Shown one piece after another: positions 1 through 61,699 of a stretch of DNA of 64,000 nt. The translations under genes were made by a program, and so were the position numbers. Within the stretch, counting starts at the first letter, position 1, and every line of letters begins with the position of its first letter. This stretch comes from a virus: IMG/VR virus record IMGVR_UViG_3300028831_000484, positions 5,398 through 69,397 of that record; one strand, given 5' to 3'. A model generated the notes under the pieces. That model ran no database searches, had not been told where the DNA came from, and was given only the letters and a program-made list of their open reading frames with translations.

Positions 1-633
1 GCGCTTTACGACACTCTGAAGGACGCTTCGTTGGAGGAAATGATCATTGAAGCAGCCGAGAAAGTGAACACCACGCCGGAGTTGTTAACGGCGCTCATGC
101 GCGACAAGACTGGCAACCCGGTGATGACAGGCGAAGCCCTGCGTAAAGCAATGGCGCGTTGTCCGTGGAACGCGAGGTTCAAGACGGCGTGTTGGAAGTG
201 CAGCGATATGTTCGTGAAGTTCTCTGGCCGTGACGACTGCTTCTACGGAGCAATCTACAAGAAGCGCAAGGCGCAGGAGATCGCTTACAACTCTCAGAAA
301 AAGTTCGCAGACCAAGCCGCTCAGAAGTTGAAGGACTTCAAGATCGGCAAGAGCACCGATGCTTACAAAGCCTACATCCAAGGGTATCTGCCGGATGCGC
401 ACTTGCACGCTAGGGCCATGAGATACACGGTCAAAGTTTTGCTGAGTCATTGGCAATTGGTGGCCTATTGGTGCCACTTCAAGACCTTGCCGCCAGCACC
501 GTATGCACTCGTATATCTCAAGCCACTGGGCCACACACACCTTATTAAACCACCGAATCTGGAGCTGTTCGAGGAGTTCAAGCCGCTCATTGAAAAGTTG
601 AAGGCTGAATGGCCGGAGTGGTGGGTGGATTAG
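1..633 (+). CDS. Tas-like Nop-domain (IS110-related) RNA-binding protein, 5'-truncated
   Basis: Frame is open back to base 1 (ALYDTLKDAS...), so the start lies outside the window. Motifs PWNARFKTACWK, FYGAIYKKRKAQE, YLPDAHLHARAMRYTVKVLLSH and PPAPY match my recollection of the phage IS110/Nop-like family. A dual-repeat array begins at its stop codon. Confidence 0.8.
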   Translation, partial: ALYDTLKDASLEEMIIEAAEKVNTTPELLTALMRDKTGNPVMTGEALRKAMARCPWNARFKTACWKCSDMFVKFSGRDDCFYGAIYKKRKAQEIAYNSQKKFADQAAQKLKDFKIGKSTDAYKAYIQGYLPDAHLHARAMRYTVKVLLSHWQLVAYWCHFKTLPPAPYALVYLKPLGHTHLIKPPNLELFEEFKPLIEKLKAEWPEWWVD

Positions 634-1033
634 TCATGTCACGAGATAGCAACAAAAGTCACGCACGTCAGTCATGACGTTCGCTCGCAACAACAACCAT
701 GCACGCCAGCCATCGTCCGGATTAGCAACAAGCCGTACGTGCAGCCACGAGAAAAGCTGGCAACATACGAATAGTTAAAGTCACATCATGTAATCGCAAC
801 AATGCCACTGAACGAGTCCTGTGATGCAATAGCAACAAGTTCGTTGAACGATCAGTTACGCTGCTCAATGGCAACAAGGAACTTGAGCGAGGCCAAGAAC
901 CGCGATAGCAACATAGCTTGCGAGCAGCCAACGTGTTCAATAGCAACAATTACGCCGAGCAGCCAAGCGTGCCAGTTGCAACAAAAGGAATGAACAAGCC
1001 AGGCATGCAGATTGCAACAGAGCGCATAATCGT
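632..1033 (+). repeat. TIGR-like dual-repeat guide array 1 (11 units)
   Basis: GCAACA loop motif at 649,687,725,760,796,832,871,908,943,978,1014 (35-39 nt period). Each is preceded by AG(C/T)CA-like + 10 nt + 2 nt and followed by ~9 variable nt. Confidence 0.88.
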
Positions 1034-1407: not shown

Positions 1408-2577
1408 ATGAAGATAGAGAAAAACGCGGCCGGAATTTTTGTCGCCCGCGTCATAACAAGCAACGGTAAGCGGACAATCAATCTGCGAACCACAAACCTA
1501 GCCGAAGCCAAGGAAATTGCGGCAGAGGCAAACATTGAAAAGGCCGAATTGATTGCGAAGATCGGAGTCATAAAGCGGGACGTGATCGCACAGGTCGTAC
1601 TGGCCCAGCGCATGTCGATGAAGGAATCCCTCAAGGAATGGGTTGACTGGCTGAAGCTGCACTCGTCACCCAAGCACGTCCTCAACATGGAGCAGGTGAT
1701 GCGAGGGTGGATCAGGAAGATGAAGCTGGAGCAGCGCGCCGTCCATGAAATGACGGCACTGGACGTGGACCGGTGGATCAATACGGAGAACACCAACAAA
1801 GCGTCAACCAGGGAATTGAAGTTATCCTGCCTCCGTGGGTTCTTCCACTTCTGCGAAGGCCGTAACTACTGCGTTGGTAATCCGTGCCGGGAGATCCGCG
1901 TTCGCATGGACAACCTGCTGCTTGAACAGAAGGAAACCAAGTCAGCGCAGCCTTTGACGCAAGACTTGGTGGACATCATCACGAAGGCTTACGATGCTGA
2001 GAGAGCGGAGCTGAAGGTCCTCAGCGAAAAGGCTTACGCTGCGCATGAGCTGGCGATCAAGGAAGGCACGTACCTTCCGGCGCATTTGGCAAAGCGAGAG
2101 CGTTTGAGGAAGCTGATTGCCGAGAACCTGTTCTGGAGGTGCGCCACGCAGTTGGCTTGGGAGACCGGCCTGCGGCTTGGTGACATCTGCCAGTTGGAGT
2201 GGTCGTCAATCGCCGTGGCTGGCAAGCTGGTGGTCTGGACGGACAAGACCGATACCAGAGTGGAGCTGAAGATTAAACCGGGCCTGCAAGCGTTGCTGCG
2301 CACTGCGCCGAAGACCGGCTCGCCTTGGGTGTTCCCGGATATGCAGCAGTTGTATTCGGATCCATACAAGCGAACCGCCTTATTCCAAGCGTTCCGGCGC
2401 CACCTGAAGCGGCAGGGAATAGAAGGCTACACCTTCCACTCCCTGCGCCATAGTTACGCCACACGGTTAAGGGCGCGCAAGGTGCCGATGGAACACATCA
2501 GACAGCGACTCGGGCACGCTTCCGTCGAGATGACGGAGCATTACATCCACGACCCAATCCACGACCAGCACGGCTGA
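1408..2577 (+). CDS. int: tyrosine recombinase / phage integrase
   Basis: ETGLRLGDI (R), FHSLRHSYAT (HxxR), RLGHAS (H), EHY (Y) catalytic signature. Confidence 0.93.
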   Translation: MKIEKNAAGIFVARVITSNGKRTINLRTTNLAEAKEIAAEANIEKAELIAKIGVIKRDVIAQVVLAQRMSMKESLKEWVDWLKLHSSPKHVLNMEQVMRGWIRKMKLEQRAVHEMTALDVDRWINTENTNKASTRELKLSCLRGFFHFCEGRNYCVGNPCREIRVRMDNLLLEQKETKSAQPLTQDLVDIITKAYDAERAELKVLSEKAYAAHELAIKEGTYLPAHLAKRERLRKLIAENLFWRCATQLAWETGLRLGDICQLEWSSIAVAGKLVVWTDKTDTRVELKIKPGLQALLRTAPKTGSPWVFPDMQQLYSDPYKRTALFQAFRRHLKRQGIEGYTFHSLRHSYATRLRARKVPMEHIRQRLGHASVEMTEHYIHDPIHDQHG

Positions 2578-2776
2578 ACAACTTCGTGATTGGCCGTGTC
2601 ACCGAGTAGTTGTTGACGATGACGGAAGCAAGGAGATTGGCCAAGCCAAGCTCGCAATCCTTGCGGTTGTGATAACCTTCTCCCGAATCGCCAACGATAC
2701 GACCGCTGCGCTTCGCCCGCCATCTCCATTGCCGGTCGTCGTCCTTGTAGAACGTGAAGCGCGTTTTCGTATTCAT
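2498..2776 (-). CDS. DUF1508/YegP-family small protein
   Basis: FTFYKDDDRQWRWRAKRSGRIVGDSGEGYHNRKDC. The ATG at 2776 overlaps the upstream stop (ATGA). Confidence 0.75.
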   Translation of the reverse strand: MNTKTRFTFYKDDDRQWRWRAKRSGRIVGDSGEGYHNRKDCELGLANLLASVIVNNYSVTRPITKLFSRAGRGLGRGCNAPSSRRKRARVAV

Positions 2777-3159
2777 GGACTTGGTGGTTGAGGTTGTGGC
2801 TGATGCGGAACTACCGGGATGGTGCCCGGCAACGGTGGACTTGGCCGGACCCCGATGGGAAGTAACCCAAGGGGAGTGGACACAACGGAAGGCTGCGTCG
2901 GCGTCATCATGTCCGGCATCCATTGAACCGGCGTTTCAGAGATCAGTTGATGCGCGGCGTTGAACGTGCGCCGGAAGGTACCGATGTGGTCCTTGCGGTC
3001 ACTGTTGTAGATACTGCCATCTGGCAGATGCGCATTAACGATTAGCACTTGGCGTTCGATGATGCAGGTTTCCTCGTAGTTGCCATTAGCCCAGCCTCCG
3101 GACGGCAGACAGTTGGTGTTGAAGATAACGGTGGCGAGGAGGAGGGTGTTGGTGATCAT
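2773..3159 (-). CDS. hypothetical protein, hydrophobic N-terminus, Pro-rich tail
   Basis: ORF chained by ATGA overlaps. Confidence 0.6.
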   Translation of the reverse strand: MITNTLLLATVIFNTNCLPSGGWANGNYEETCIIERQVLIVNAHLPDGSIYNSDRKDHIGTFRRTFNAAHQLISETPVQWMPDMMTPTQPSVVSTPLGLLPIGVRPSPPLPGTIPVVPHQPQPQPPSP

Positions 3160-3599
3160 GGTATGGCTTGGAGTTTAACGCGATAAAATGCAAACGTGTT
3201 GTTGTTGGTAAACGGCAGAAACAGCGTGGAAATGTTTTCAAACGGCCCGGCCAGTGACGGCGCCTGCTCAATCTCCGCTCGCAGGTTGATAATGATCGGA
3301 CCCGGTGGCGTTGGCGTAAGCGGGACAAGTTGTATAACCGGCGCGCTGAGCGGACTGGACTGCCACTGGTTGGTGCAGCTCATCGCGTAGGTATGGAATC
3401 CAGGCATCACGCTGACAAGGACCGCGCTGTTGGTAACGCCAACGTCCAGCTTCCGAACCCATGTCCCGTTCACCTGCTCAAAAATACAGTACCCTGCGAT
3501 GGCTTGGTTTGGATCATTCAACGGCCAGTTGAACACGACATCCATCGCGTAAACGTTGGTGACAATGAGAAGCAACAGGAATCCAATTAGATTCTTCAT
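3156..3599 (-). CDS. secreted FN3-like domain protein
   Basis: Signal peptide MKNLIGFLLLLIVTNVYA; W...GY...YAMSCTNQWQSSPLS pattern; C-terminal FYRV. Confidence 0.6.
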   Translation of the reverse strand: MKNLIGFLLLLIVTNVYAMDVVFNWPLNDPNQAIAGYCIFEQVNGTWVRKLDVGVTNSAVLVSVMPGFHTYAMSCTNQWQSSPLSAPVIQLVPLTPTPPGPIIINLRAEIEQAPSLAGPFENISTLFLPFTNNNTFAFYRVKLQAIP

Positions 3600-3606
3600 G
3601 GGATAA

Positions 3607-3939
3607 TTACGGGGTGAGGGTGGTGGTGAAGGTTGGTGCAGTTGGCGCGGCCGGGATAAAGCTTTCAAAGTCAACACTTGGGTCCGACTCTCCGTCAACG
3701 TTGACCGCCGTGACAATATAGTAATGGGTGCCAGCCGTCACGTTCGAAACGTAAGCCATGAGCTGTGGGTCTGCCGATGGCAAGACACTGAGAAGATAAG
3801 TATAGTTGGTGCCAGTCCGTTCGTAAACCTTGTACTCGGTTACCTGATCGGAGTCCGGGTTCGGCAGGAAATAAAACCATGTGTCCAGTGCAATGGCTGG
3901 AACAACAATGAGCAGGATGATGGCGAGAGCGCGGGTCAT
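3607..3939 (-). CDS. secreted FN3-like domain protein
   Basis: Signal peptide MTRALAIILLIVVPAIA; YKVY...HYYIVTAVNVDGESDPS is an FN3 C-terminal motif. Confidence 0.7.
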   Translation of the reverse strand: MTRALAIILLIVVPAIALDTWFYFLPNPDSDQVTEYKVYERTGTNYTYLLSVLPSADPQLMAYVSNVTAGTHYYIVTAVNVDGESDPSVDFESFIPAAPTAPTFTTTLTP

Positions 3940-4190
3940 TTCTTGTTTGTCCAAAAGCTGGTGTCGATGCCGCACTTTTTCATCAGTTCAATGACGGCAG
4001 ATGCGTCGGTGGCATACAAGTGACCAACGAATCCGCCAGCGCAATTGAGCAGGAACCCAACGAAAGCAGTCCACCAAAGCACCCGGTTTGGAGCGCCGCC
4101 AGCCAGCATCGGCAGCATGCCAACGCCCATCAATGCCGTGCCAAGCGTTCCAATGGCGCCTCCCAGTGTGGTTCTCCAGTTCGGTGGCAT
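3936..4190 (-). CDS. holin-like two-TM membrane protein
   Basis: NWRTTLGGAIG, two hydrophobic helices, basic C-terminus; at the end of the late operon. Confidence 0.55.
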   Translation of the reverse strand: MPPNWRTTLGGAIGTLGTALMGVGMLPMLAGGAPNRVLWWTAFVGFLLNCAGGFVGHLYATDASAVIELMKKCGIDTSFWTNKK

Positions 4191-4357
4191 CAGTTAGCCT
4201 TGTTGTTTTTCAAAAGTTTCTCCAGCTCTTCGTTCGCCTGCCATTCATAATCAAAGCACCGCTCAACCTCATACCCGTACTTGTTGTCAATCTTTCCTCG
4301 CACACACCACTTTCGCTTTTGCTCATCCCAGCGCACCGTGTAGCGAATTATCCCCAT
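4190..4357 (-). CDS. small hypothetical protein (start uncertain)
   Basis: MGIIRYTVRWDEQ...; fills the gap between the receiver-domain gene and the holin-like gene. Confidence 0.35.
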   Translation of the reverse strand: MGIIRYTVRWDEQKRKWCVRGKIDNKYGYEVERCFDYEWQANEELEKLLKNNKAN

Positions 4358-4398
4358 AGTCCATACCAAGGACCATACCCCTGCCCCATAACTGACAA

Positions 4399-4818
4399 TC
4401 ACAATTCGATCTTGTGTGCTTTGAATACCTCTCCGAGGTTCGTATGTGTCAGCGGCTTTTCGATGATGCCAACGTACCCGATCTTCATGGCATCCTGCAA
4501 ATCCTCGCTGCGCGCATGACCGGTGACGATGACTACCGGAACATTCGGACACACCTGCTTGGCGGCTTTGAGCACGTCAACGCCGCTTCTGTTTTGCAGT
4601 TTCAAATCAAGGAACATCAGGTCAACGGCGTCGGTGGCGCTTCGCAGAAATCCAACCGCGTCATCCACGGACTTATGCCAGAACACCGTGCATCCCTGGT
4701 TTGACAATGCTATTTTGGACAGTTCGCCCTCCTCCGCTTCGTCCTCCACCAGCAACACCTTTGGCGATCTGGCCAGTGTAGCCGCTAGTTTCTGCACGTA
4801 TTTCAGCATTCTATCCAT
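4399..4818 (-). CDS. stand-alone response-regulator receiver (CheY-like) protein
   Basis: KVLLVEDE...DLMFLDLKL..RSGVDVL...PVVIVTG...IIEKP: acidic pocket, phospho-Asp, Thr and Lys-Pro all present. Start chosen at MDRML. Confidence 0.88.
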   Translation of the reverse strand: MDRMLKYVQKLAATLARSPKVLLVEDEAEEGELSKIALSNQGCTVFWHKSVDDAVGFLRSATDAVDLMFLDLKLQNRSGVDVLKAAKQVCPNVPVVIVTGHARSEDLQDAMKIGYVGIIEKPLTHTNLGEVFKAHKIEL

Positions 4819-4823
4819 TTCGA

Positions 4824-5183
4824 CTAATGCTTGAGCCAGTTCTCTATGACTTTGCTTACTATGACCGGAAGTCCCAGCAGTGCGAGATAGGCCGGTATCG
4901 ACCATTTGCTTACTAGCAGTGACCGCCATCTTTCCTGTTTCCATAGTCTGTACTCCAGTGTTCGCACCTGCTTGTTCAACAGGAGCATTTGCGCCGTGTT
5001 GAAATCCGACTGCTGAGCCATCATGTCCAGCGTCGCAACGACTTCACGCTCGCGCCGAGTGAGGTTCGGTGAATCCAAAAGGTCTGGTGGGATCCGTGGT
5101 TGAAACGCAGGCCGCTCCACAGCCGGAAACTGGGAGCGCTCAAACAGGTCTGTGTCTCCTTCCGGTTCACGTTCGTTGCTCAT
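4824..5183 (-). CDS. coiled-coil protein with C-terminal TM helix
   Basis: Hydrophobic WSIPAYLALLGLPVIV near the C-terminus. Confidence 0.55.
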   Translation of the reverse strand: MSNEREPEGDTDLFERSQFPAVERPAFQPRIPPDLLDSPNLTRREREVVATLDMMAQQSDFNTAQMLLLNKQVRTLEYRLWKQERWRSLLVSKWSIPAYLALLGLPVIVSKVIENWLKH

Positions 5184-5202
5184 TTGTTAACGCCATGATC
5201 GT

Positions 5203-6609
5203 TCAGTTCGTTGTCACCGTAGCACCGCGTGTTACTAACGCCGCCGCATCAGTTAATCCCTGGCCGGTTGGCTGCGCATTAGTTCCGCCGTTGAGCAGCA
5301 CCGTCTCGCCAGTTGTGCCCCATGTTGGTGTAGCTATCAAGAAGGCAAGGATGGCATTCACACTAGCTGCATTTAGCGAATTGCCAGTGAAATCATAATT
5401 GACACCGGCAGTTGCCACGTAGTTAGCCAGAGTGAGGGTGGTTAGCAACACGTTGGACTTTATGGTTATGCCACCAGTTGCGGCAACCAGGAGCGGAAGA
5501 TTGACGGTCGTAAGCAGGGTATTGTTTTGAAAAGTCAAAGCCGTGCAGGTGGTTAAACTGGCCAGAACGGTTGAGTCAATTGTCGTTAAGTTGGTGGCCT
5601 CAATCGTCAGCGCGTTGCAGGTCTCCAACAACGGAATTGATAATGCCGATACAGCCGAAATGCTTATCTGTCCACCAGTGTTAATCGTCGTCAGCGCTGG
5701 CAATGAAAGCGAAGGATGAACTGACCCGGCTGGCTGAAAAATAAACGCGCCACACGTCTCCAGCAACGGGACGGACAACGTCGTAAGCGATGGGCAATTG
5801 CTGACCTCCACTGCTCCGTCCGTAGCTGTACCAAGCGATGGCAGTAATATCTGCTCCAGTAATGCGGCACCTGCAAAAGACATCCCATGACACGTTGTAA
5901 GCTCCGGGAAATTAAGCTCCGTGAGAGAATCACAAGTAATAACATTGAAATTGCCGCCGATCACTTTCAACGCGGGGAAAAGCAGTGAAGCCAAAAGCGG
6001 GCAAATACGAAGATAAAAATAACTGCTTGCTTCAAGCGTCGTTAACAGCGGGAATGAAAGGCTGAGCAATTGGTTCATGCTCTCAAAGTCGTAGCCTTGC
6101 TTAGCTGACACATGGTTTATCACCAAGTCAGTAATGTCATTGTCATCAGCTTGATAAACGAATAAGCCAAGGTTGCCAGCCTTGTCCGATGGTGTAACAA
6201 CAACGTCAGCGCCACCTGTACCATCAGCGGGCAGGTACAATTTCGTGCCATGCAAATTATCCAACATCGGCCCGCCCTGCACATTCAACTCAACCTTCTT
6301 CTTACGCCACATCTCGCAGGTCAACGAAATGGCGTCGTCCGTTGTGGCTTCGGCCGATGAACCCGGCACACGAATTACGAATGTATCCGTGTCTGTGACG
6401 ATGGCCGCTTCTCCTTTTGGCGTGTTGAACTCGTCCTCCTTTGCTCCAGAAATGTAAACCCTCGTTCCGTTTTGCAGGTTGTGATCACCATCCGTGGTGA
6501 CCACAACTTTCTGCGTATCACCAACTCGCTCCATGCTGGTGATGCCGATGGTGGTTAAGCGATCCGGCGTGGACCCGCCAACCGAAAGTGTTAGAAATCC
6601 GTTTCGCAT
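5203..6609 (-). CDS. leucine-rich repeat (L-domain-like) protein, probable virion adhesin
   Basis: Repeated LxLPxLxT units; N-terminal H-x-L..V.ISGA..FN domain; paralogue of 6611-7870. Confidence 0.7.
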   Translation of the reverse strand: MRNGFLTLSVGGSTPDRLTTIGITSMERVGDTQKVVVTTDGDHNLQNGTRVYISGAKEDEFNTPKGEAAIVTDTDTFVIRVPGSSAEATTDDAISLTCEMWRKKKVELNVQGGPMLDNLHGTKLYLPADGTGGADVVVTPSDKAGNLGLFVYQADDNDITDLVINHVSAKQGYDFESMNQLLSLSFPLLTTLEASSYFYLRICPLLASLLFPALKVIGGNFNVITCDSLTELNFPELTTCHGMSFAGAALLEQILLPSLGTATDGAVEVSNCPSLTTLSVPLLETCGAFIFQPAGSVHPSLSLPALTTINTGGQISISAVSALSIPLLETCNALTIEATNLTTIDSTVLASLTTCTALTFQNNTLLTTVNLPLLVAATGGITIKSNVLLTTLTLANYVATAGVNYDFTGNSLNAASVNAILAFLIATPTWGTTGETVLLNGGTNAQPTGQGLTDAAALVTRGATVTTN

Positions 6610-6610
6610 A

Positions 6611-7870
6611 TTAGTTCGTGGTTACCGTAACTCCGCGTCCAATGAGTGTGGCCTTGTCCGCTGCGCCAGTAACGCTCGGTGGTGCGCTTGTTCCGCCAGC
6701 CAAGTTGACAGTTCCAGAAACATAAGCAGCGTTAGCCACGCAGCGAGCCAGGATTCCGTCAACGCTCTCCTCGTTCAACGCGCAATTATCGAACACAATC
6801 GGTTTCCCATTCACAGGAACAAGCGATGGAAAGTGAACCTCAACCAACGCAGTGCAGTCCTGGTAGTTAATGCCATCAGGCCCGCTGACGCTCACCAATG
6901 ACGGATAGTAAACTTCCGTCAGCGCTGGATTACCTGCTCCAGCCAAGTTGCCGCCGATTGTAGCAAGCAATGGCGCATATATTTTCAGAAGCGTTGGACT
7001 TAACTGGTTGTAATAAATGAAGTCTAGTGTGACGGACGTTAAGAGCGGCAGATTAACAGCGCAAAGCTGGTTAGCATTCAATCTCAACGAGCTAGTAATC
7101 GCTGTCAGCGCTGGAAGGTACAATCCACGAAGCTTCGGGCTTCCAGTAATTTCCAGCGCACCACTTGCAAATACATCAAGTCCCACATAAGCCAAGTTTG
7201 GATTGCTATTAAACACAATCCCATTAGCGCTGGTACTGGTCAGATTCGGAAAATCAATTACGGCCAAGTCCGGCTCGTCGTGTATGTAAAATGCCAGTCC
7301 GGGTCCCGTAAGGGTAACATCAGATACAACCGTGCTCCCGATCTTTGTCGTAACCACATTTTCAGCGGGGCCTCTTGACTGATAAGTAACATCGACAAGC
7401 GCTCCAGCCGCTAACCCAGCCGCCTGCCCATCAGAATAACCCGTGGCATACGTTGGCAGCACGTCCACTTCCGGCAGGAACAAAAGCTTCCCATCCAAGT
7501 CGTCCAATGGCTTTGTTCCCTCCACCGAAACCTCCAGCTTTTTCTTGTGCCAAATGTCGCGCAGGCAAACGATGGTCCCGCTTGCCGATGCCGTGTCGCC
7601 ACGCAGGCGCATGGAGAACGTGTCTGGTCCGGTTACAATAACCTCTTCTCCATACATCCGGTGCATTGCCTCGCCGCCCGTATTGAACTCCGGTTCTACA
7701 GCGCCGGAGATGAACACCCGATCAAACGGGGTTTGAAGTCCATGAATGCCATCGGTTACGACAAGGACCTCATCGGTGCCAACAACACGATCCATGCTTA
7801 CAACACCAATGGGACTTAACCTTGCCGGTGTGTCTCCGCCGAACGTTAACGAAAGAAATATGTTGCTCAT
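6611..7870 (-). CDS. leucine-rich repeat (L-domain-like) protein, paralogue
   Basis: Same architecture; shared C-terminus ...RGxTVTTN. Confidence 0.7.
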   Translation of the reverse strand: MSNIFLSLTFGGDTPARLSPIGVVSMDRVVGTDEVLVVTDGIHGLQTPFDRVFISGAVEPEFNTGGEAMHRMYGEEVIVTGPDTFSMRLRGDTASASGTIVCLRDIWHKKKLEVSVEGTKPLDDLDGKLLFLPEVDVLPTYATGYSDGQAAGLAAGALVDVTYQSRGPAENVVTTKIGSTVVSDVTLTGPGLAFYIHDEPDLAVIDFPNLTSTSANGIVFNSNPNLAYVGLDVFASGALEITGSPKLRGLYLPALTAITSSLRLNANQLCAVNLPLLTSVTLDFIYYNQLSPTLLKIYAPLLATIGGNLAGAGNPALTEVYYPSLVSVSGPDGINYQDCTALVEVHFPSLVPVNGKPIVFDNCALNEESVDGILARCVANAAYVSGTVNLAGGTSAPPSVTGAADKATLIGRGVTVTTN

Positions 7871-7902
7871 AAATTAAAAACCGTCCCGGCGGGCATGGTG
7901 TC

Positions 7903-7924
7903 GTCACCCTAAACGAAGGGTGAC
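7903..7924. promoter_or_regulatory. 22-bp palindrome GTCACCCT-N6-AGGGTGAC
   Basis: gtcaccct-aaacga-agggtgac, perfect arms, ~33 nt upstream of the 7870 start. Confidence 0.65.
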
Positions 7925-7936
7925 AGAACGCAATAA

Positions 7937-10900
7937 TTAAAACGACAGCGCGTTCTGAAGGCTGAAAACCTCACCAGCCTGGCGCCGCAACAACTCCGTA
8001 CGATCCGGCCGCAGCGACGACGTTGGTTGCCCTGTAAACGGGGCGATGCCAAGACGTTCCCCGTACCGGTTGAACAGCCTTATTGATTCCGTAACTGCCT
8101 GCTGGCCATTATCTGGCAGCGCCCTCAGCAAGGAATGATAATCTTTTGAGGAGGGCGGCGTTTGAAAAACAGAGCGCAGCGGATGTTGAAACGAGAAGGC
8201 ACGACGAACGTAATCCTTCGCATCCACCCGCCCGTCTTCCTTCGCCGCAGCAATGGCATCGGCGTACGCTTCGGCAAAAGCTCCGCTGTCGTTGGCCAGC
8301 GCGGACAGCATCATCTCTCGGATATAAGGCGTCGTTCGGTTGGGAACGTAATCCCCTGATGCGCTTGCCCCTTTGCGCACCGGGAGCTGTTCTGCGCGCC
8401 CGGCAACTCGTAACCAATTGTTCACGTTTAACCGGGCCGTGACGCGTGCCTCTGCGTTGTCGAATCCGAAGATACCGTTCAGCGCGTCCAACCATTGCAA
8501 GGCCCCGCTGCCACCCATCGCAGCGAACAATGGACGGTACACGGTGGCGTATGTGCCCGGCCCGCCCTGGTGGAATATCCATCCACCCATGGTGTCCATG
8601 ATGGAAGTCAGCGAGTTGACGAAGAACACCCGAGAATCAACCGTGAACGGCCTGGCCGTCGATTGATTGATGTAGGCGTTAGCCGCGTCACCGATGATGC
8701 CAAGGGATCCAACTGTGGCCACCCGGTCCAACATCGCCATCGCCAAGTTGTCTCCCCATAACGACATGCGGTTGGCCTTCTTCTTCAGCACGTCTTCATC
8801 CCACCGGTCTGCCAACAGGGAATACGCCAGTGCCACGCCAACGAGGGGCAACGCAGCGAACAGTCCACGTTGCAGCGTCAGCCACATGCCGTGCCGCTCG
8901 CCGGTAATCTGGTCCCGATAGATGGTGTCCAACGATGCCATCTGGCCAATCGCCCAGCCGGTCAATGGCGCCAGCACACCGAAGTAAGCGGAGGACGCAA
9001 GGGCAGACGGCCGTGTGGCGATGGAAGACTCACCGGTAATCTCTGTCGGGCCGATGACCAAGAGATGCTGGTATTGCTCCTTCGTCAGCACCTGCCCAGT
9101 CGTGCCACGACCAATGTAATCCTTGGCCATGTCCTCCAGCGTAAGGCCACCGTGCTGTTCCAACATGGCGATGTACCGCTCAAACTCACGCTGGCCCAAG
9201 TTGAACAACCTTGCGTGCGAACCATCGAACTGGAACGTCGGATCATTTAACGTGCCGGGCGGAGCTTGGTTCTCTATCCACTTCGCCGCCCGCGTCACCA
9301 GCCGTTCCGTCATGCTCCACACGGCGCGCACCGAAGCGGCATGGGCAATAGACGACTCCAAGTTGAACAAGGCAAACTTCAGCTTCGTAAACTTCGAACC
9401 CTTTGCAGGAGTTGGAACCGGGCTGCTGATTATTTCCCGGGACACGCGGCTTAAAATTGACACACCACGTCCAACCTTTTGAAGAATCGTTGCCGCATCA
9501 TCGGCTGGGTATGCGAGCGCGGCTGCAAGGATACGGTCCTTCAACCTTGTAACGTCGGCGTGCGGTTGCTGGTTAAGCTCATGCCACATGGCAATATGCT
9601 CAGCCTCCCAGTTCATGGTGATGTTGAACGCCTGAAGGAAACTGCCGATGGCTTCCTTTCCAAAACCAATAACACTTTTCGCAGTCTGCTCCCAGCCGAG
9701 TTTAGAAAAGCCGCCGTAGATTTGCAGCGGTTTGAACATCGCCGTCGTATCAAAGAATGCAGTCTTTGGCCCCTGCAACACGGCCGTAGTCATGGTCTGC
9801 ATCGCCTCCGCGAACGGCCGGAAATCCACCAGCACACCGCCGCGCAACTTCACCCAGTTCAGAAAGTTTTTCTCCTCCTTCGTAATGGAATGCAGGATGC
9901 GCGCAGCGTCGTTGAGCTGAGCCAACGTGAACCCTTCGGCCAGTGCCTGTGCTTCAATGTATGCCTTCTCGTCCTTCTTCGTTATCGTTCCCGCCGCAAT
10001 AGCTTCTTCCGCTCTCCTGCGGACCATGCCAAGCTTTTCGGATCGAATGCTGAAGTGATCCTTTGCGAGCTGGAATTCCTTTAACGCAACTTCCATGTTC
10101 CGCCCGAAGGCCAAGTGCAAGGCGAGCTGCGAGGATAACGCACGCGTTCCTTGGATGTCGTACCTGTGGTAACGCACCCATTCCTTTGGCAACTCATTCA
10201 TCTTGCGTGCATCCATCATGAGATGCTGCACCGGCACCACCGTTTTTCCGACAGCGTTGGCCTGATCGGACATCGCTCCGTGAATTGAGTCGTAGTAGGT
10301 TTGTATGGTGCCCAGCGTCTTCGCCACGAACGCAGCTCTCTCTGGCGGAAACGTAGGACCAGCCGGTGCCGTGGCATCAAACAGGTTCTCAGCGAACTTC
10401 AACACGTCACCAACCGGCGCATTATTGAAGGCATCCGTGACCTGCTGAACGGTTGCCAAGTGCGTGAACCCGGTATGGTCCGGCACAGCGTCGAATGCTG
10501 CTTGCCCTGGACGCCGGGCCAACGGTGCAAGGAACCGGTCCCAAACGTTCTTCGTAAACAACGGTGCCAGCTTCGCCGCCAGTGCTGGACGGTTTTCGTA
10601 TTCGCTGGCCAGCGTCTTAACGTCCATCGGTGACGTGGCCCACGCGCCCTTCTCGATGCCGTTGCCGTGCTGCATCTCCGTGTAGATACCGTGCAGCAAC
10701 GCAGAGAACGTTCTGCCGACTTCGCTCCGCAGTCCACGGAACGAGCGAAAAAAGTTTAAGTCATCATCCTTAATCTTCCCGCCGTTCTCTTGAATGAACG
10801 TGACGTATTCCTTATTGATGTCGAACGTGGTCCGCAGAAGGTTCTCCAGCGCTGCCCACTGGTGACCGGGCAGATTGAAGAAGGTCCGAACCGCAGCCAG

Positions 10901-52670: not shown

Positions 52671-52928
52671 ATGGCAAAGTTATCACCAGAAGAAGAAGCA
52701 ACGCGCAGGTTCTGCAAAGCCTACTGGGCTTGGCTGCGAAGGGACCTTGTGGAGGAACCACTGCCGGTAGACTTCGGCGTTGACCCGCAGTTCGGTGAAG
52801 CAGTGGCCAGGCAGATTCACATAGAATTCGAAGATCGTGTTATGCAGAAGACTTTGGCTAACCTGCCTCAACGGCCAGTCAAGAGAAGCGCTAGCAACAA
52901 TTCAGACGAACGCAAACCGATGTTGTAG
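52671..52928 (+). CDS. small hypothetical protein
   Basis: Chained ORF; its 3' end overlaps a guide-like unit. Confidence 0.55.
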   Translation: MAKLSPEEEATRRFCKAYWAWLRRDLVEEPLPVDFGVDPQFGEAVARQIHIEFEDRVMQKTLANLPQRPVKRSASNNSDERKPML

Positions 52929-53151
52929 CATTCAAAATACAAGTTAGCAACATAGCCACAGTGAACAAGCACGAGCTACAGGAGGAATACCAGTATCGCT
53001 ACGACGAGCGGCTTGGTATCTTTTGCGGAAATAACGAACCTACCGTTGAACAAAAAGCCATTGCCACCGAAGAGGCAGAGCAATGGTTAGAGGAGGAGAT
53101 GGAACGAAGTCAAATGCCGGGATAGCAACAAACCTGTTATACGTCGCGCCA
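52877..53151 (+). repeat. TIGR-like mini-array 4 (3 dispersed units)
   Basis: agtca-N10-tagcaaca at 52877/52892 and 53108/53123; attca-N10-tagcaaca at 52930/52945. Confidence 0.65.
52961..53125 (+). CDS. 54-aa acidic hypothetical protein (not in the ORF track)
   Basis: GTG start; NKHELQEEYQYRYDERLGIFCG...; lies between guide-like units. Confidence 0.5.
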   Translation: MNKHELQEEYQYRYDERLGIFCGNNEPTVEQKAIATEEAEQWLEEEMERSQMPG

Positions 53152-53795: not shown

Positions 53796-54098
53796 AACAG
53801 TGTCAATGTTAAAGCTTGGTGGCGGTTAATTTCAATAACCTGTCCGACTTGGAGGCAAAAGTTCAGGCTTTTTCTGCACATGATGAAGCGGGCGCGAGCC
53901 GGTTTCGTAACTCCAAGCATCAGACGGCAACGCCTGGCGGTCTGTGAACAATGCCCGATTTATTGCCCTGAACTCCAAAGTTGTGGCACAATCGAAAGCA
54001 AGCTTGGCTGCAAATGTTACGTGCCGATCCTGACTTGGTTCAAGGGCAGTTGCTGGGCGAAAACAGATTTCCCTGAATCGGAGCTGGGTTGGGATTGA
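53793..54098 (+). CDS. Cys-rich small phage protein
   Basis: RLAVCEQC...CG...GCKC...CW pattern. Confidence 0.55.
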   Translation: MNSVNVKAWWRLISITCPTWRQKFRLFLHMMKRARAGFVTPSIRRQRLAVCEQCPIYCPELQSCGTIESKLGCKCYVPILTWFKGSCWAKTDFPESELGWD

Positions 54099-54900
54099 TT
54101 TTCCAAGCCAACCCCCTGAGTATTCGACTAACGTTTCCGCCATTGTTGTTGAACCTTTTGGCAATAGCGTCAACAGTCCAACCGTCTTTTCTTAGTTGGT
54201 GCATCTGTCTAACGATTTCCACACTAAGCGCGGTTTTGCTTTGATTGTAGTTCTGTTCGGCACGAGTTGCAAAACGACAGTTGCCGGGTTCATAGTCCCC
54301 ATCGTTGTCAATCCTCTCGATTGTTAAGTCGGGCTTCCAGCCGTGATTTTTCGCCCAAGCGTAAAACACATCGAAGCTGCACGCCCACTGCTCGCAGACC
54401 TTTATTCCACGCAGATAATAATACTTTCGTTCGCCCTCATTTGCCTTTGAGGAACACCTTCTTAACATCCCTCGCCAGATCCGCTTTAACTTTTTGTAGT
54501 CAGGCAGGAGCACTGGCTTTGGTGGTTTTACTTCTGGAATCTTTTTGGGTCTCAACTCCCACGCTTTCTTTTGCGCGCAATTGAAGCATCTAACGCTGAC
54601 TTTCTTTGGACTAGAATATGTAACCAGTTTTTCCTTCCCACAATCAACACATCGAACAATATACGTCCAGTGCTTCCCAACTTGGTTGGCTCGCTGAACA
54701 CCATCAATGAAAATCCGCCTGTGTGACGAACTGCAAGCGTGCGAGCAGTAAAGTCGATGCCTGAAGTGTTCTATCGGTTCGATTCGTCCCGAAGATAATC
54801 GGCCGCGAGAAAAAGATTTGCCGCAATGCTGGCAAATTTTGTCAGGCAATGGAATTAGTGCTGACACTTGGCTGGGAGTAGGCGAATTCCATTTGGTCAT
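54040..54900 (-). CDS. HNH homing endonuclease (YGGRG-like) with N-terminal Zn fingers
   Basis: CQHCGK..YCSHAC; RGIKVCEQW; TIERIDNDGDYEPGNCRFAT. Confidence 0.85.
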   Translation of the reverse strand: MTKWNSPTPSQVSALIPLPDKICQHCGKSFSRGRLSSGRIEPIEHFRHRLYCSHACSSSHRRIFIDGVQRANQVGKHWTYIVRCVDCGKEKLVTYSSPKKVSVRCFNCAQKKAWELRPKKIPEVKPPKPVLLPDYKKLKRIWRGMLRRCSSKANEGERKYYYLRGIKVCEQWACSFDVFYAWAKNHGWKPDLTIERIDNDGDYEPGNCRFATRAEQNYNQSKTALSVEIVRQMHQLRKDGWTVDAIAKRFNNNGGNVSRILRGLAWKINPNPAPIQGNLFSPSNCP

Positions 54901-55224: not shown

Positions 55225-56030
55225 TGACTACGCTCTGCCATTTTGTTGCGAATGCTGCTCCTGGCTATCGAACAACCATATTGTTGCTATCACTGTCTCT
55301 GTCTTTTAACTATTCATTCTTGGGCTTTGTTGCCATTTCCACTTGCGGCTGCGTGCTACGAGCTTGTTGCGATTTGCCGTTATAACTACTTCATTACCGT
55401 GTTGCTACTTGGTGCTGTGGTTACGAGCTTTCGCCTTGTTGCTATTCAGCATGATGCCTTCGTGCACACTGTTTGTTGCGAACTGGTTGTTTGACTGCGT
55501 TCGGGATTTTTGTTGCCATCTGCTGCTACGACTTCATACGACGTTCCGGTTGCAAACCTCTTCTGTGATTGCGTGCCTTCTCTCTGTTGCCATCGGGCTT
55601 AGTGACTTCATTCGCGGCAAATGTTGCCATCACAGTCTGCGGCTGCGTGCTCATTATATGTTGCCATCAGGATTCATGACTTCGTGCTCGGTGAACGTTG
55701 CTATCGACACCCTTAACTACGCTCTTCGGCATTGTCGCCATCATTATTCTTGGCTGCACTCGTCTGGTCTGTTGCGATTCAAGCGCGTGATTAACGCATG
55801 AGCTTTCTGTCGCTATTTGCTACGTTGGCTTCGTTCGCTCAGGGATCTTGTCGCTATCCAGCATATTGGCTGCGCGTGTAACGTTCTTGTTGCGATGCTC
55901 CTTCATGACTACGTTTTATGAACACGGCATTATTGTTGCGATTCCTCACCATGGCTACGCTTTGTGCTCCTGTTGCAATTTCCCATCGTAACTACGTTCG
56001 GCCAATTTGTTGCGATCTTGTGATGTGACT
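55225..56030 (-). repeat. TIGR-like dual-repeat guide array 2 (21 units)
   Basis: TGT(T/C)GC-type motif on + at 55244,55282,55328,55365,55400,55437,55474,55511,55548,55585,55622,55659,55696,55733,55770,55808,55849,55888,55934,55971,56008; mostly 37-nt period; same consensus as array 1. Confidence 0.9.
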
Positions 56031-56040
56031 GGGTTATGGG

Positions 56041-57899: not shown

Positions 57900-58172
57900 T
57901 TAATGGAATTTTATCCTGCCATCCGCAATGAAATCAATGAGTTCCTGAACCGTCATCGCCCCGGTGCACTCCTTCTCCAGCCAAATGTCGTCAATTTCAC
58001 AGTTCAAGGAGTCCTCAAGCTCCAACGAGAAATCAATCCGCTCCAACGAGTCGAACTTCAACTCCGCAATCGTCGTTTGCAGCGATACCCCAGCCGCCAG
58101 CTCTGAGTTGTTGCGCAGGATTTCAAGAACCACGTCGTGCAGCAGGTTGTATTGGGCGGTTGTGGGCTTCAT
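57900..58172 (-). CDS. acyl carrier protein-like
   Basis: ELKFDSLERIDFSLELED...TVQELIDFI; DSL phosphopantetheine motif; acidic, 90 aa. Confidence 0.8.
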   Translation of the reverse strand: MKPTTAQYNLLHDVVLEILRNNSELAAGVSLQTTIAELKFDSLERIDFSLELEDSLNCEIDDIWLEKECTGAMTVQELIDFIADGRIKFH

Positions 58173-60049
58173 AGATCGAAGGGAGGTGGCGGTTCAGGCG
58201 CGGGCGGCTCCAAAGGCCCTGGTTCAGGTGGAGGAGGTGGCGTAAAGTCAAGAAGTGGGTCAATTTTTGGATCCGCAACCGGTCCAACCTTGCAGTAGCG
58301 CATGACATCAGCAAAAAACCAGAAGCCAAACGTGCCTTCCACGCCCGTATCCCGCTGCTTGTCGCATTTGACCAGCGCATCCGCCGAATGATCGTGAGGA
58401 TCATCGTTATTTTTCTTCTTGTTCCTCCAAATCACCATGACGTTGTCGGCTTGGTTCGTTAAATCGCCGCTCCCTTTGACATCCTGCTTCGTAGCCGAGG
58501 TAAACTCATCAGTTTTTTTACGACTGTGAACCACCAGGTGCACATGCGCGTCATAAAGCTGAGCGTGAGCCGACAATTCATTCGAAAAAGCACGTTGCCC
58601 GTCCAAGTCATCACCCGCCAAATCAATTTTCATGAGCGAATCGACCACGAAATGATCGATGCCATACCTGGCCGAGGCGTATTCCATCAACTCAAGAACT
58701 TCTGCGGTCTTAACGATGCCCTTCAAATCGAAAATCCACAGCTTGCCAGTCATCCATTCCAAAACCTGATCGATTTCTTCGTTGGTAACGCTCGTTTTAA
58801 CCAAAGCCTGACGTATCATGCGCCAAAGAGTTATCTTTCCGGGCATCTCCATCGAAGCTATAGCCACCGTTTGATCCGCTAGCATGGCGTGCAACATCAG
58901 CTCAGAAAGAAAAATTGATTTTCCGTGCCCAGAGAACCCCGTCCAAATCGTCATAGCGGCCGGTGCGAACTTAACCTTGTTATGCAACAGGTCCGGAATG
59001 AAGCCTTCAGGCTCGTTGCCGGTAGGATTAGCGACTTCATGAATTTCATCGGAGAATTCAATGGGTCGTTTAATGCCAGCAGGAACAAAAGGCTGCGCAT
59101 TCAACAGTGCCTTTCCAAAAAACTCCCGCTCGCATCCGTGTTGCAAGGCTTCGTTCGCATCCTTGAAGCCTTCCAGCACCACGCGAAAGCAACGATGCCG
59201 CCCCAGCCGCTTGGCTACACCCTCCGCTGCTTCCATGCCCGCCTTGTCGGAATCGAAAGACAAAAAGATTTTATCGAACGCCTGCAAGTTCTCCCATTCG
59301 AAATCAATCCATGAACGATCCGATGCACCCTGCGGAACCGACAACGCAGGGAACCCAACCTCCGCCCACGTTAACGCATCGATCTCTCCCTCCGTGATGA
59401 CTACCTCACGACACTTCGCCGGAAAAGCCTGCCAACCGAACAGGGAGGGTGGCGTGCCAGTGCCTTCTTTGCGTATAAGTTTCTTCCCGTCCGGTCCACG
59501 CTTCACGTTCAGATATTTCATCGCCAGCAACTCATCGTTCGGGGAATAATACGGGAAGGCGATTTCCGCCCGCGCACCCGGTCCTTCACCGGTCATCAAC
59601 TCTTTCATTCGAAACGCACGCAGCGTTTCAAACGACAACGCCCGTTGACCCGTCAGATATTCGCAGACCGGGGATACGAAACGAACAAGGACCGCAGAAG
59701 CAGGCTCAGCGATCTTTGACCACTTCCGTTCTCCAAACGTAGACTGCGGTTCCTTGATGTGTAGAAACTCCCGCGCCATAGCAAGAGCTTTAACCAACTT
59801 CACGCCCTTCGATGCTACAATCAAATCCAACAAGTCGCCGGAGGAGCTACTACCACCCGCCGCGAAATCACACCACACCCCGGCTTTATCACCAATCAAA
59901 TGAACTTTTAACGACGAGCCGCTACCCCCGTTGACGTTGCTCGCTTCATACTCGTTTCCAACTCGTTTCCCACCGGGTAACAACCAGTGGGCCACCGCTT
60001 CAGCTCGTTGAGCCAATAACCTGGACAAATCTTTAGCATCGTATTTCAT
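58169..60049 (-). CDS. bifunctional primase-helicase (TOPRIM + SF4, T7 gp4/Twinkle-like)
   Basis: VITEGEIDAL, FDSDKAG (TOPRIM); TGFSGHGKS, FVVDSL, VVHSRK, KGSGDLTNQADNV (SF4). Confidence 0.9.
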   Translation of the reverse strand: MKYDAKDLSRLLAQRAEAVAHWLLPGGKRVGNEYEASNVNGGSGSSLKVHLIGDKAGVWCDFAAGGSSSSGDLLDLIVASKGVKLVKALAMAREFLHIKEPQSTFGERKWSKIAEPASAVLVRFVSPVCEYLTGQRALSFETLRAFRMKELMTGEGPGARAEIAFPYYSPNDELLAMKYLNVKRGPDGKKLIRKEGTGTPPSLFGWQAFPAKCREVVITEGEIDALTWAEVGFPALSVPQGASDRSWIDFEWENLQAFDKIFLSFDSDKAGMEAAEGVAKRLGRHRCFRVVLEGFKDANEALQHGCEREFFGKALLNAQPFVPAGIKRPIEFSDEIHEVANPTGNEPEGFIPDLLHNKVKFAPAAMTIWTGFSGHGKSIFLSELMLHAMLADQTVAIASMEMPGKITLWRMIRQALVKTSVTNEEIDQVLEWMTGKLWIFDLKGIVKTAEVLELMEYASARYGIDHFVVDSLMKIDLAGDDLDGQRAFSNELSAHAQLYDAHVHLVVHSRKKTDEFTSATKQDVKGSGDLTNQADNVMVIWRNKKKNNDDPHDHSADALVKCDKQRDTGVEGTFGFWFFADVMRYCKVGPVADPKIDPLLDFTPPPPPEPGPLEPPAPEPPPPFDL

Positions 60050-60069
60050 AAGTTACCTTTCTGCGCGCC

Positions 60070-60277
60070 CGGCCGCATCGCATCGGTTGTTGCAATTCCC
60101 GTGCTTGTCTTGGCCGGGCGCGCTTCAATGTATTGGTTGTCGCTACTGCCTACGTTGATTACTCGAACAAGGTGTTTGTCGCTATCCCGTCGAATGTTTG
60201 AACGAACTGTCTGGTTGTTGCCATCTCGTCTCATGACTGAACGAACGCCAAGTGTGTTGCTATTGAGCTTTCTGTCT
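60070..60277 (-). repeat. TIGR-like dual-repeat guide array 3 (5 units)
   Basis: Loop motif on + at 60088,60138,60177,60216,60255 (spacing 50,39,39,39); edge variant TTCGTTC. Confidence 0.85.
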
Positions 60278-60287
60278 CTCGTGAAAT

Positions 60288-61217
60288 TCATAGACTCGGC
60301 TTCCTCACCTGCGGCGGCGGATTTAAAACTCTCCTTCGCCTCGAAATCTCCCCATTCTCATCAAACCCCTCCAGCGTCGTCTGCTCACCCACGACCTTTC
60401 CAACCTCCTCCCGCATCACCGGCAAATCACGCGCCGAGTAATACGAATCAAACTTGGTTTTTGCGAACAACGTGATCGGCCGAAGGTATTCCTCCTGCGG
60501 CGTCCCTTTCCAACGGCTGACCTGCCGATTGATCATGACCCTACATCCCGCCTCCTCCACACCAGCCTCCGCCAGCCTCGCAGCAATTATCGAAAGATTG
60601 GACTCCACCTCCCGAAACGGCTTCCCAGTCGCCTGCGCCAAGTGTCCCAATAACCTGCGCGCCACCTCATAACGAACAATCTTCTCTGAATCACCGTTTG
60701 TGCTTGCCTTAGTAATCGCGCGCGCGGTACAAGGATCTCTTACAAGGTCCTTGTAAGAATTCTGAGTAAGATCCTGATCCTGATCCTTATCCTCATGGGA
60801 GGGGGCCTCCCATGCCACTGGGAGTGGGGGTGGGAGGGGGGCTACCAGGGGGACTGGGAGGGGGGCTACCACCCCATCGCTTCCTATCAAAAGCCCATGT
60901 TTCTTCAACAATGCCATCACTCGAACATGGTATTGGCATCGTCCTGATAGCTCTCCGTATTGAAACTTGATGAACTTCGGAATAAACCACTTCGCCTCCG
61001 CCAGCCTCCTCACCCTGTCCCCCAATAATCCCATGTCCGTTTCCTTAAAACCTCCCGCCCCTACTCCTGACTCGAAATTTACCCTGTCCCAATCTAACTC
61101 GATTACTCCTGCCCCATCACATTGATCGCAGATATACAACCACAACCACTGCAATCGCATTCCAAGCTGCCGGAACCATGGATCTCCCCACTTCCCACCT
61201 TCAGTAAATCGCTTCAT
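60288..61217 (-). CDS. phage replication initiator (Phg_2220_C-like C-terminus)
   Basis: MKRFTEGGKWGDPWFRQL N-terminus; YLRPITLFAKTKFDSY C-terminus; DKDQDQD linker. Confidence 0.8.
   Translation of the reverse strand: MKRFTEGGKWGDPWFRQLGMRLQWLWLYICDQCDGAGVIELDWDRVNFESGVGAGGFKETDMGLLGDRVRRLAEAKWFIPKFIKFQYGELSGRCQYHVRVMALLKKHGLLIGSDGVVAPLPVPLVAPLPPPLPVAWEAPSHEDKDQDQDLTQNSYKDLVRDPCTARAITKASTNGDSEKIVRYEVARRLLGHLAQATGKPFREVESNLSIIAARLAEAGVEEAGCRVMINRQVSRWKGTPQEEYLRPITLFAKTKFDSYYSARDLPVMREEVGKVVGEQTTLEGFDENGEISRRRRVLNPPPQVRKPSL
60796..60871. repeat. iteron-like direct repeats inside the initiator gene (putative origin)
   Basis: TGGGAGGGGGGCTACCA at 60831 and 60855; partial copy at 60796. Confidence 0.5.
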
Positions 61218-61699
61218 CCGTGACTTTCCTTCCTGTAAAAAAATCGGGACCCCACCAGACTGAGCTTTCTTCGGAAGATACTGGCCGCTCGGCCGTTTCG
61301 AAGCAATCGGTGGAGTCCCAAACTTTAAATCTCGTTTCCAAAGAAAGCTGCCCGCTGTTCTACTCCCTCCACCATCCCCTGCAAGTCTTTTTTTCAACTC
61401 GCTCGTTTTTCCTCCCAATTCAATGAACCTTAATGAAATTGAAATTGTCAGAAAGTTGAGAGAAGGGCCATTGTGCGCCGCCCCGGCCTGGCCCCCTCGC
61501 CCCCGGATCACCCCGGATACTCGAAATCCTGGCGTTTCTCCTCATTTGCAAGGAGTTACGCGTTTCACAACCTCAATCGCCGTATGATCAAGCAAGTCGC
61601 CCGTTTCGGGATTTCTCCAATTCCTTCAAACGACTTGCGGATCAAACGGAAACACAGCTTAGCTGATAGACCTTGACGCGTTCAACGGATTTGACCGTA

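Follow-up and report, generated by a model that had tools for sequence, protein, structure and literature searches.

Repeat units between two replication genes

The DNA described here comes from a soil phage, specifically from a 77,647-bp virus record rated complete, bases 5398-69397 of which constitute the 64-kb stretch that was analysed, hereafter referred to as the window; coordinates refer to the window unless they are marked as genome coordinates. On its minus strand, a replication initiator gene is followed by a gene encoding a primase-helicase, and five tandem repeat units (60088-60277), referred to below as the mini-array, lie between the two, all of them within an open reading frame of 81 codons (ORF81; genome coordinates 65443-65688) (Table 1). 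The position of the array between these two functions, proposed in a first-pass annotation of the same DNA, is borne out by the Phg_2220_C and phrog_428 matches on one side and the Toprim_2 and DnaB_C domains on the other. Because the homologue in contig L004 aligns from residue 99 of the longest initiator frame, the true start of the initiator is probably Met99 (position 61217). The primase-helicase has 1303 homologues, the best of which is 49% identical to it, and its stop codon is overlapped by 4 nt by an acyl-carrier-protein-like gene of the same operon (57900-58172, minus strand; PP-binding 1.3e-4, phrog_5934). The units of the mini-array are oriented in the sense direction of the minus-strand replication operon, and neither a sigma-70-like promoter nor a terminator-like site was found at the mini-array; given this orientation and the lack of a promoter-like site, co-transcription with the replication genes would be the simplest reading. 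No RNA runs holding the mini-array sequence were listed.

Table 1. Location of the repeat arrays, the mini-array units and the adjoining genes.
Feature	Coordinates	Strand	Basis and remarks
6-unit array	genome 3917-4150, outside the window	+	upstream of tasA; loop-core anchoring
tasA	1-633 (3' part); whole gene L001:4858-6030 (genome coordinates)	+	Pfam Transposase_20, 3.2e-7
11-unit array	632-1033	+	directly downstream of tasA; loop-core anchoring, model R1
Three solitary units	52877-53130	+	same repeat family; model bits 17.0, 11.9, 19.3
21-unit array	55225-56040	-	4 kb downstream of the mini-array, same operon; loop-core anchoring, model R1
Primase-helicase	58169-60049	-	Toprim_2 + DnaB_C; phrog_239, 2.3e-104
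ORF81	60046-60291	-	contains the whole mini-array; ATGA overlaps at both ends
Inverted repeat	60063-60123 (arms 60112-60123 and 60063-60074)	-	perfect, 12 bp, GC-rich; encloses unit 5 as a 37-nt loop
Unit 5 core	60088-60110	-	edge AGACA, spacer A, loop TTGCAACA; R1 11.7 bits, E 0.024
Unit 4 core	60138-60160	-	edge AATCA, spacer A, loop TAGCGACA; GTTCGAGT before; R1 7.9 bits, E 0.43
Unit 3 core	60177-60199	-	edge AAACA, spacer A, loop TAGCGACA (rare G variant); GTTCGTTC before; R1 10.3 bits
Unit 2 core	60216-60238	-	edge AGTCA, spacer A, loop TGGCAACA; edge variant GTTCGTTC before; R1 18.4 bits, E 1.6e-4
Unit 1 core	60255-60277	-	edge AGACA, 10-nt spacer A, loop TAGCAACA; spacer B and next edge down to 60239; R1 11.1 bits, E 0.04
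Replication initiator	60288-61511 (longest frame)	-	Pfam Phg_2220_C, 1.5e-14; phrog_428, 4.8e-14

All five units quoted in the first-pass annotation are present letter for letter, each consisting of an ARWCA edge, 10 nt, a TDGCRACA loop and about 10 nt that lead into a short edge. The core pattern ARWCA-N10-TDGCRACA has 11 matches across the 64-kb window, where shuffled sequences lead one to expect 0.07, and the six matches outside the mini-array fall in or beside the further arrays of the phage. The loop reads T-D-GCRACA in every unit. Each of the ten spacers is preceded by NCA, and the A spacers are followed by AT except in unit 4, which has GT ahead of its loop; the ARWCA edge is preceded by (T)CG at three of the four internal edges. 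The ten spacers are 9-10 nt long and all different. Overall, the edge of the mini-array is weaker than the edges of the large arrays, and spacer B is followed by TT or TC, as opposed to mostly AC or GC in the large arrays.

The period of 39 nt that had been claimed for the mini-array holds for the first three loop-to-loop spacings, but the fourth is 50 nt, so that unit 5, which starts 50 nt after unit 4, is not in codon phase with the units before it. The edges are 2 nt longer than those of the 21-unit array (TCG-TTC-AGTCA versus ACG-T-AGTCA), which accounts for a unit of 39 nt here and of 37 nt there; across the other arrays of the phage, the unit measures 35-39 nt, occasionally 41-46 nt. As for edge sequence, TTCGTTCA occupies two of the four internal edges and GTTCGAGT the third, with a GC-rich stem arm taking the place of the fourth, whereas the tail of the 6-unit array has GTTCGTC, GTTCGTA and GTTCCAA edges at a 38-nt period. 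TTCGTTC, which the first-pass annotation considered peculiar to this locus, is thus present at half of the internal edges, and edges of the GTTCG type recur in the array at genome 3917-4150.

Tandem Repeats Finder, run with a minimum score of 30, does not report the mini-array because whole units are only about 60% alike, and Rfam gives no match within it, with a single sub-threshold match to a snoRNA model (E 0.83) located outside the array. A sequence-only covariance model, R1, was trained on the 32 units of the 11- and 21-unit arrays, with the five mini-array units excluded, and recovers all five of the latter (7.9-18.4 bits; E 1.6e-4 to 0.43), unit 2 being the best preserved and unit 4 the weakest; at E <= 10, the model produces 57 matches in 80.6 kb, all inside arrays. 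Apart from unit 2, the units fall short of the scores of nearly all units in the two large arrays, which are also the training set of the model, and these four score like the degenerate tail of the array upstream of tasA (9.4-12.6 bits). The excess of pattern matches and the recovery of every unit by R1 establish that the five-unit array is real.

The TIGR-type repeat family of the phage and its tasA gene

Loop-core anchoring reveals four arrays of one repeat family, with 6, 11, 21 and 5 units, as well as three solitary units; outside the mini-array, there are 41 units at four other loci, two of which flank tasA. The solitary units overlap the 3' ends of two small open reading frames (52671-52928 and 52961-53125), and the stop codon of the latter is the TAG of the loop repeat. 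The tasA gene, situated between the 6-unit and 11-unit arrays, encodes a product of 387-390 aa that matches PDB 9MTY, the TasR structure from the paper defining TIGR-Tas (Faure et al., 2025, PMC12045711), at 1.5e-5 in a phmmer search. A profile of 22 homologues reaches an E value of 3.2e-19 against the same structure (TaTasR) and of 1.4e-8 against TasH structures, and its match to 9MTY spans the Nop-like domain up to and including the C-terminal PY...GH.H..PP stretch. The TasA-type protein has a conserved C-terminal stretch containing Tyr and His; according to a preprint, Tas proteins of the dual-repeat class use a Tyr/His dyad to process the precursor of their own arrays (Xu et al., 10.64898/2026.09.09.750476). 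As judged from the recovery by R1, the Transposase_20 domain and the profile match to 9MTY, the phage carries a TIGR-TasA system and the five units belong to its repeat family, in line with the first-pass annotation. The mini-array is separated from the sole tas gene by 59.4 kb along the record, or by about 17 kb if the genome is circularly permuted, and no Nop or Transposase_20 match was obtained near the mini-array by profile search.

Two HNH genes were also noticed near other arrays of the phage. One, between the upstream array and tasA (L001:4157-4912, plus strand, genome coordinates; Pfam HNH_3, 2.5e-7), shares 55 nt with the longest tasA frame but is read in a different frame, and could represent either a TasH-like layout in split form or a homing HNH gene unrelated to it. 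The other, downstream of the 21-unit array in the same operon (54040-54900, minus strand), encodes an HNH endonuclease of 286 aa (phrog_374, 6e-37; no Pfam match) with no detectable similarity to the solved TasH structures.

Dual-repeat TIGR arrays consist of alternating edge and loop repeats of 8-12 nt and spacers of 9 nt (up to 12 nt), contain most often 5-15 units and yield 36-nt guides (PMC12045711). The present system shares with such dual-repeat TIGR-TasA systems (Faure et al., 2025, PMC12045711; e.g., FpTIGR-TasA) the alternation of edge and loop repeats, two short variable spacers per tandem unit, the ..CA before each spacer, a number of tandem units that falls within the published 5-15, and residence in a phage genome together with a nuclease-less Nop/IS110-like Tas. 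By contrast, its unit in the mini-array measures 39 rather than 36 nt and has degenerate edges, and the mini-array, instead of adjoining tas, lies 59 kb from it on the record, inside a replication-gene operon and open in one reading frame. Moreover, whereas the published arrays end in a truncated edge and a rho-independent terminator, the mini-array has no terminator and ends in a stem followed by the ribosome-binding site of the next gene.

The arms of this stem around unit 5 are the only two exact copies of the sequence in the window, and the predicted fold of minimum free energy includes the stem (z -2.7 over the full 271 nt). No T-run follows it, and the ribosome-binding site of the primase-helicase (AAAGG) begins 2 nt past its 3' arm. 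The core of unit 5 can be parsed as ACA + 9 nt + AT, a 4-nt gap and again ACA + 9 nt + AT. With this 14+4+14 layout, as in TIGRFinder, and its 12-bp palindromic stem, unit 5 alone resembles the stem-loop TIGR units (Faure et al., 2025; Xu et al., 2026), from which the locus differs in that the other four units lack stems and the Tas protein is of the dual-repeat class. The 15-mer GCCGGGCGCGCAGAA, located at 8390-8404 (minus strand) inside an open reading frame of 3099 aa, is identical to the 3' arm of the stem plus 4 nt, which, in coding sequence rich in GC, probably reflects chance.

Direct repeats beside an initiator gene, accompanied by an inverted repeat, are a common origin layout in phages and plasmids. 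The repeats described here, adjacent to the initiator gene and upstream of the helicase gene, could in principle be iterons, that is, binding sites of the initiator, with the GC-rich inverted repeat forming part of the origin, but we consider this extremely unlikely. Iterons would not be expected to be dispersed as 41 further units over four other places, two of them flanking tasA, and the conserved blocks are arranged according to the dual-repeat grammar, two variable segments of 9-10 nt included. Furthermore, the 39-bp spacing corresponds to about 3.7 helical turns and thus provides no helical phasing, and the region contains no AT-rich stretch, its GC content being 0.46-0.58 throughout.

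The edge variants had been taken, in the first-pass annotation, as a sign of independent duplication in place. However, the mean pairwise identity of the spacers within the mini-array is not above that within the other arrays, so that a simple recent in-place duplication is unsupported, and there are hints of ancestry shared with the 21-unit array. Units 3-5 align with units 5-7 of that array, and the GCGACA loop, a rarity in the other three arrays (3 of their 38 units), is present in both pairs. Over the collinear spacers, 32 of 60 positions are identical against a null mean of 19.3 (permutation p 0.03, or 0.046 counting all positions); spacer A of unit 4 has 7 of its 10 positions in common with unit 6 of the 21-unit array. 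In addition, the 13-mer GACAGAAAGCTCA, which spans the edge and spacer A of unit 1, recurs as the loop end and spacer B of that same unit 6. This marginal support is suggestive, but not conclusive, of a descent of the mini-array from a partial copy of the 21-unit array followed by spacer drift; the 21-unit array is the probable source or sister of units 3-5.

Targets were sought with joined spacers, in both orders and with gaps of 0-2 nt. Within the phage itself, this produced 19 matches with at most 3 mismatches of 18, compared with 6-18 for shuffled spacers, and in 2.3 Mb of further loci it produced 20 matches with at most 2 mismatches, compared with about 26 expected; in neither search was a target found for any spacer. 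Spacer B of unit 2 of the 21-unit array (55960-55998, minus strand), followed after a 1-nt gap by the reverse complement of spacer A, has one mismatch of 18 at L181:12554, L183:5429 and L184:4337; this is one sequence common to three related TasA-phage contigs, and about one such match is expected by chance in 2.3 Mb.

Against this background, the mini-array could be a decayed relic, that is, a piece of a TIGR array, perhaps copied from the 21-unit array, that provides no usable guides and serves as filler keeping the translational link between the neighbouring genes. We regard this as possible, albeit rather doubtful. Decay would account for the 7.9-11.7 bits of four of the five units, the lengthened and degenerate edges and the failure to find spacer targets in either search, and the identity of units 3-5 with units 5-7 at roughly half of the spacer positions is what an old copy drifting by point mutation would show; the sole polymorphism in 3 kb (see below) also falls in the mini-array. 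Yet the loop repeat and the CA before the spacers are intact at all ten positions, and the perfect 12-bp stem framing unit 5 looks maintained rather than decayed. Nor are the low scores and long edges confined to the mini-array: the array tail next to tasA is equally degenerate, and the edges of the 11-unit array are likewise 1-2 nt longer than those of the 21-unit array, so that edge length varies among presumably working arrays.

The gene junction and its open reading frame

In the relatives of the primase-helicase, which are at most 49% identical to it, the upstream gene overlaps the start of the primase-helicase gene directly: by GTGA in L004, where the upstream gene is an initiator homologue (E 2e-24), by ATGA in L123, by 4 nt in the contig of P0004 and by 19 nt in L005. 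No intervening open reading frame or array is present at the junction in any of these four contigs. As judged from this comparison, the coupled junction has acquired an insert of 242 nt specific to this lineage, with coupling signals on either side of the insert. The ATG of ORF81 overlaps the TGA of the initiator (ATGA, 60288-60291), its TGA overlaps the ATG of the primase-helicase (ATGA, 60046-60049) and GAGGA is located 11 nt upstream of its ATG. TATGAA stands at both ends of the insert; if these repeats are an insertion footprint, both ATGA overlaps would come free, and all that is left to explain is the matching frame and its openness (jointly about 0.13).

Comparable arrangements, defined as an array-confined open reading frame overlapping open reading frames of at least 80 aa at both ends, were sought among 132 arrays of 80 related TasA loci. 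None of the 132 arrays passed this test, whereas ORF81 was flagged by the identical script; the exact 6-mer chain array finder on which the test relies misses the mini-array, and similar degenerate mini-arrays in relatives could be missed too. Among the loci compared, the bridging open reading frame is found only in this phage. Dispersed arrays between unrelated genes, as far as array positions in these loci indicate, are a recurring trait of the TasA clade.

Closer relatives of the locus were sought in several ways. The 3.3-kb region has no blastn match among 50,697 phage records, and the related-locus search using the primase-helicase alone returned no relative. Viral contigs scanned for three loop repeats at array spacing yielded 117 stretches, none of which has at least three units by the position matrix; no phage with an identical repeat sequence was thus found. 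Wherever Logan contigs from four soil DNA runs of one study overlap the window, their sequence is identical to it; at low depth, these contigs contain no joints or length variants. A soil contig, L003, is 99.97% identical over 3025 bp, with a sole difference at 60167 (T here, C there), which lies in spacer B/edge of unit 3 and is non-synonymous in ORF81 (Val to Ala). Among the related TasA loci, L130 (IMGVR_UViG_3300021560_000022) has five dual-repeat arrays interleaved with genes at 1871-10695, a layout found also in L131, and its arrays at 8384-8641 and 10394-10695 flank the large terminase gene terL (8739-10250).

The first-pass annotation dismissed the 81-codon frame as spurious, a view that can be upheld only in part. 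In its favour, a search of 5.8 billion proteins returned a single match, from the 99.97% identical soil contig, and no Pfam or PHROG family matches ORF81. No fold is predicted for its product either (pLDDT 0.29 in the ESM Atlas and 52 with AlphaFold2), and a structure-atlas search gave no usable look-alike. The composition of the sense strand is array-like (A 0.33, T 0.16, GC skew +0.02), whereas the flanking genes have a GC skew of +0.16 to +0.29 and an AT skew near 0. Neither conserved homologues nor a substitution pattern indicative of purifying selection was seen, the one relative being nearly identical and differing by a non-synonymous change. The open frame as such is not surprising given the 39-nt period: when the spacers are shuffled around unchanged repeats, 40% of the versions stay open (codon score 0.086 +/- 0.076). 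On the other hand, the ATGA overlaps at both ends have no counterpart at the 132 control arrays, and this double overlap makes translation through the array more probable than not, with the 81-aa peptide probably a by-product.

It is very unlikely, in our estimation, that ORF81 is a genuine protein-coding gene whose 81-aa product, built of repeats of about 13 residues, has a replication function of its own and whose DNA derives from, or resembles, an array. The coupling signals at both ends, the GAGGA upstream of the ATG, the absence of the bridge arrangement from the 132 other arrays and the gene called at this position in the ENA contig all speak for a gene, as does the codon score of +0.152 per codon, which lies at the 14th percentile of real in-frame windows and above every wrong-frame window of real genes. 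However, codon usage does not tell a gene from an array here, the same score being within the range of stop-free stretches in non-coding arrays and at the 80th percentile of the spacer-shuffled nulls, and the base composition equals that of arrays, not that of genes. The lack of homologues beyond the nearly identical contig, of any family and of a predicted fold, and the non-synonymous nature of the single known difference further argue against a gene, and the relatives replicate without ORF81.

Guide-type units within an unbroken frame have been described as intragenic tigRNAs, which are located inside the tas reading frame without breaking it (10.64898/2026.09.09.750476; BlTasA) and for which the authors propose a link between guide maturation and translation. 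The two cases also resemble each other in that the encoded stretch is predicted to be disordered. They differ in that the host gene of the intragenic tigRNAs is tas and the arrays are mostly of the stem-loop type, whereas the frame described here is a stand-alone open reading frame of 81 codons, almost all of it array, far from tas.

A mini-array within the replication operon

We give slightly better than an even chance to the reading that a satellite TIGR mini-array occupies the coupled junction, where it is transcribed along with the replication operon and ribosomes probably translate through it. The mini-array would have been inserted, or would have grown, exactly where relatives have the 4-nt stop/start overlap at the primase-helicase gene, and it would be transcribed as part of the replication mRNA. 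TasA could bind the array RNA and cut within the edges, yielding guides of about 36-39 nt. A 39-nt period amounts to 13 codons, so that the insert would stay open in one frame, and ribosomes finishing the initiator might restart on the insert and then again on the primase-helicase, whereby the coupling would survive the insertion; the 81-aa product would be a by-product of this passage rather than a folded protein.

Orphan or mini CRISPR arrays on phages and mobile elements are short, remote from effector genes or without them, and presumably served in trans. The mini-array resembles them as a short array remote from its effector but belongs to another RNA-guided system; mini-arrays of the CRISPR type are equipped with a leader and a promoter of their own, and they do not form part of a translated gene junction.

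A more demanding possibility, which we consider unlikely, is that the insert is a dual-use element, one RNA being both a translated coupling bridge and the source of guides cut by TasA. If so, processing by TasA would sever the replication mRNA between its two cistrons, guide supply would be linked to the initiator-to-helicase ratio and vice versa, and selection for the double role would have acted on the period of 39 nt (13 codons) and on the stem that frames the last unit.

TIGR-Tas systems were described only in 2025, and their natural roles, their regulation and the origin and growth of their arrays are open questions (PMC12045711). The published surveys extended to within 10 kb of tas and located arrays upstream of, downstream of or inside tas. 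In this phage, a seemingly working array family is scattered over five places, and the location of one copy in a translationally coupled junction of the replication operon is an unusual placement. Were the mini-array active, as the satellite reading supposes, guide production would depend on replication-gene transcription and TasA would cut an essential mRNA, making the locus a concrete case of cross-talk between an RNA-guided system and the gene expression of its carrier. If it is only a relic, it would indicate that array fragments are tolerated in an operon and can become open reading frames. Finally, the partial likeness to three units of the 21-unit array hints that arrays may spread as copied segments whose spacers drift afterwards, a point of relevance to the expansion of TIGR arrays.
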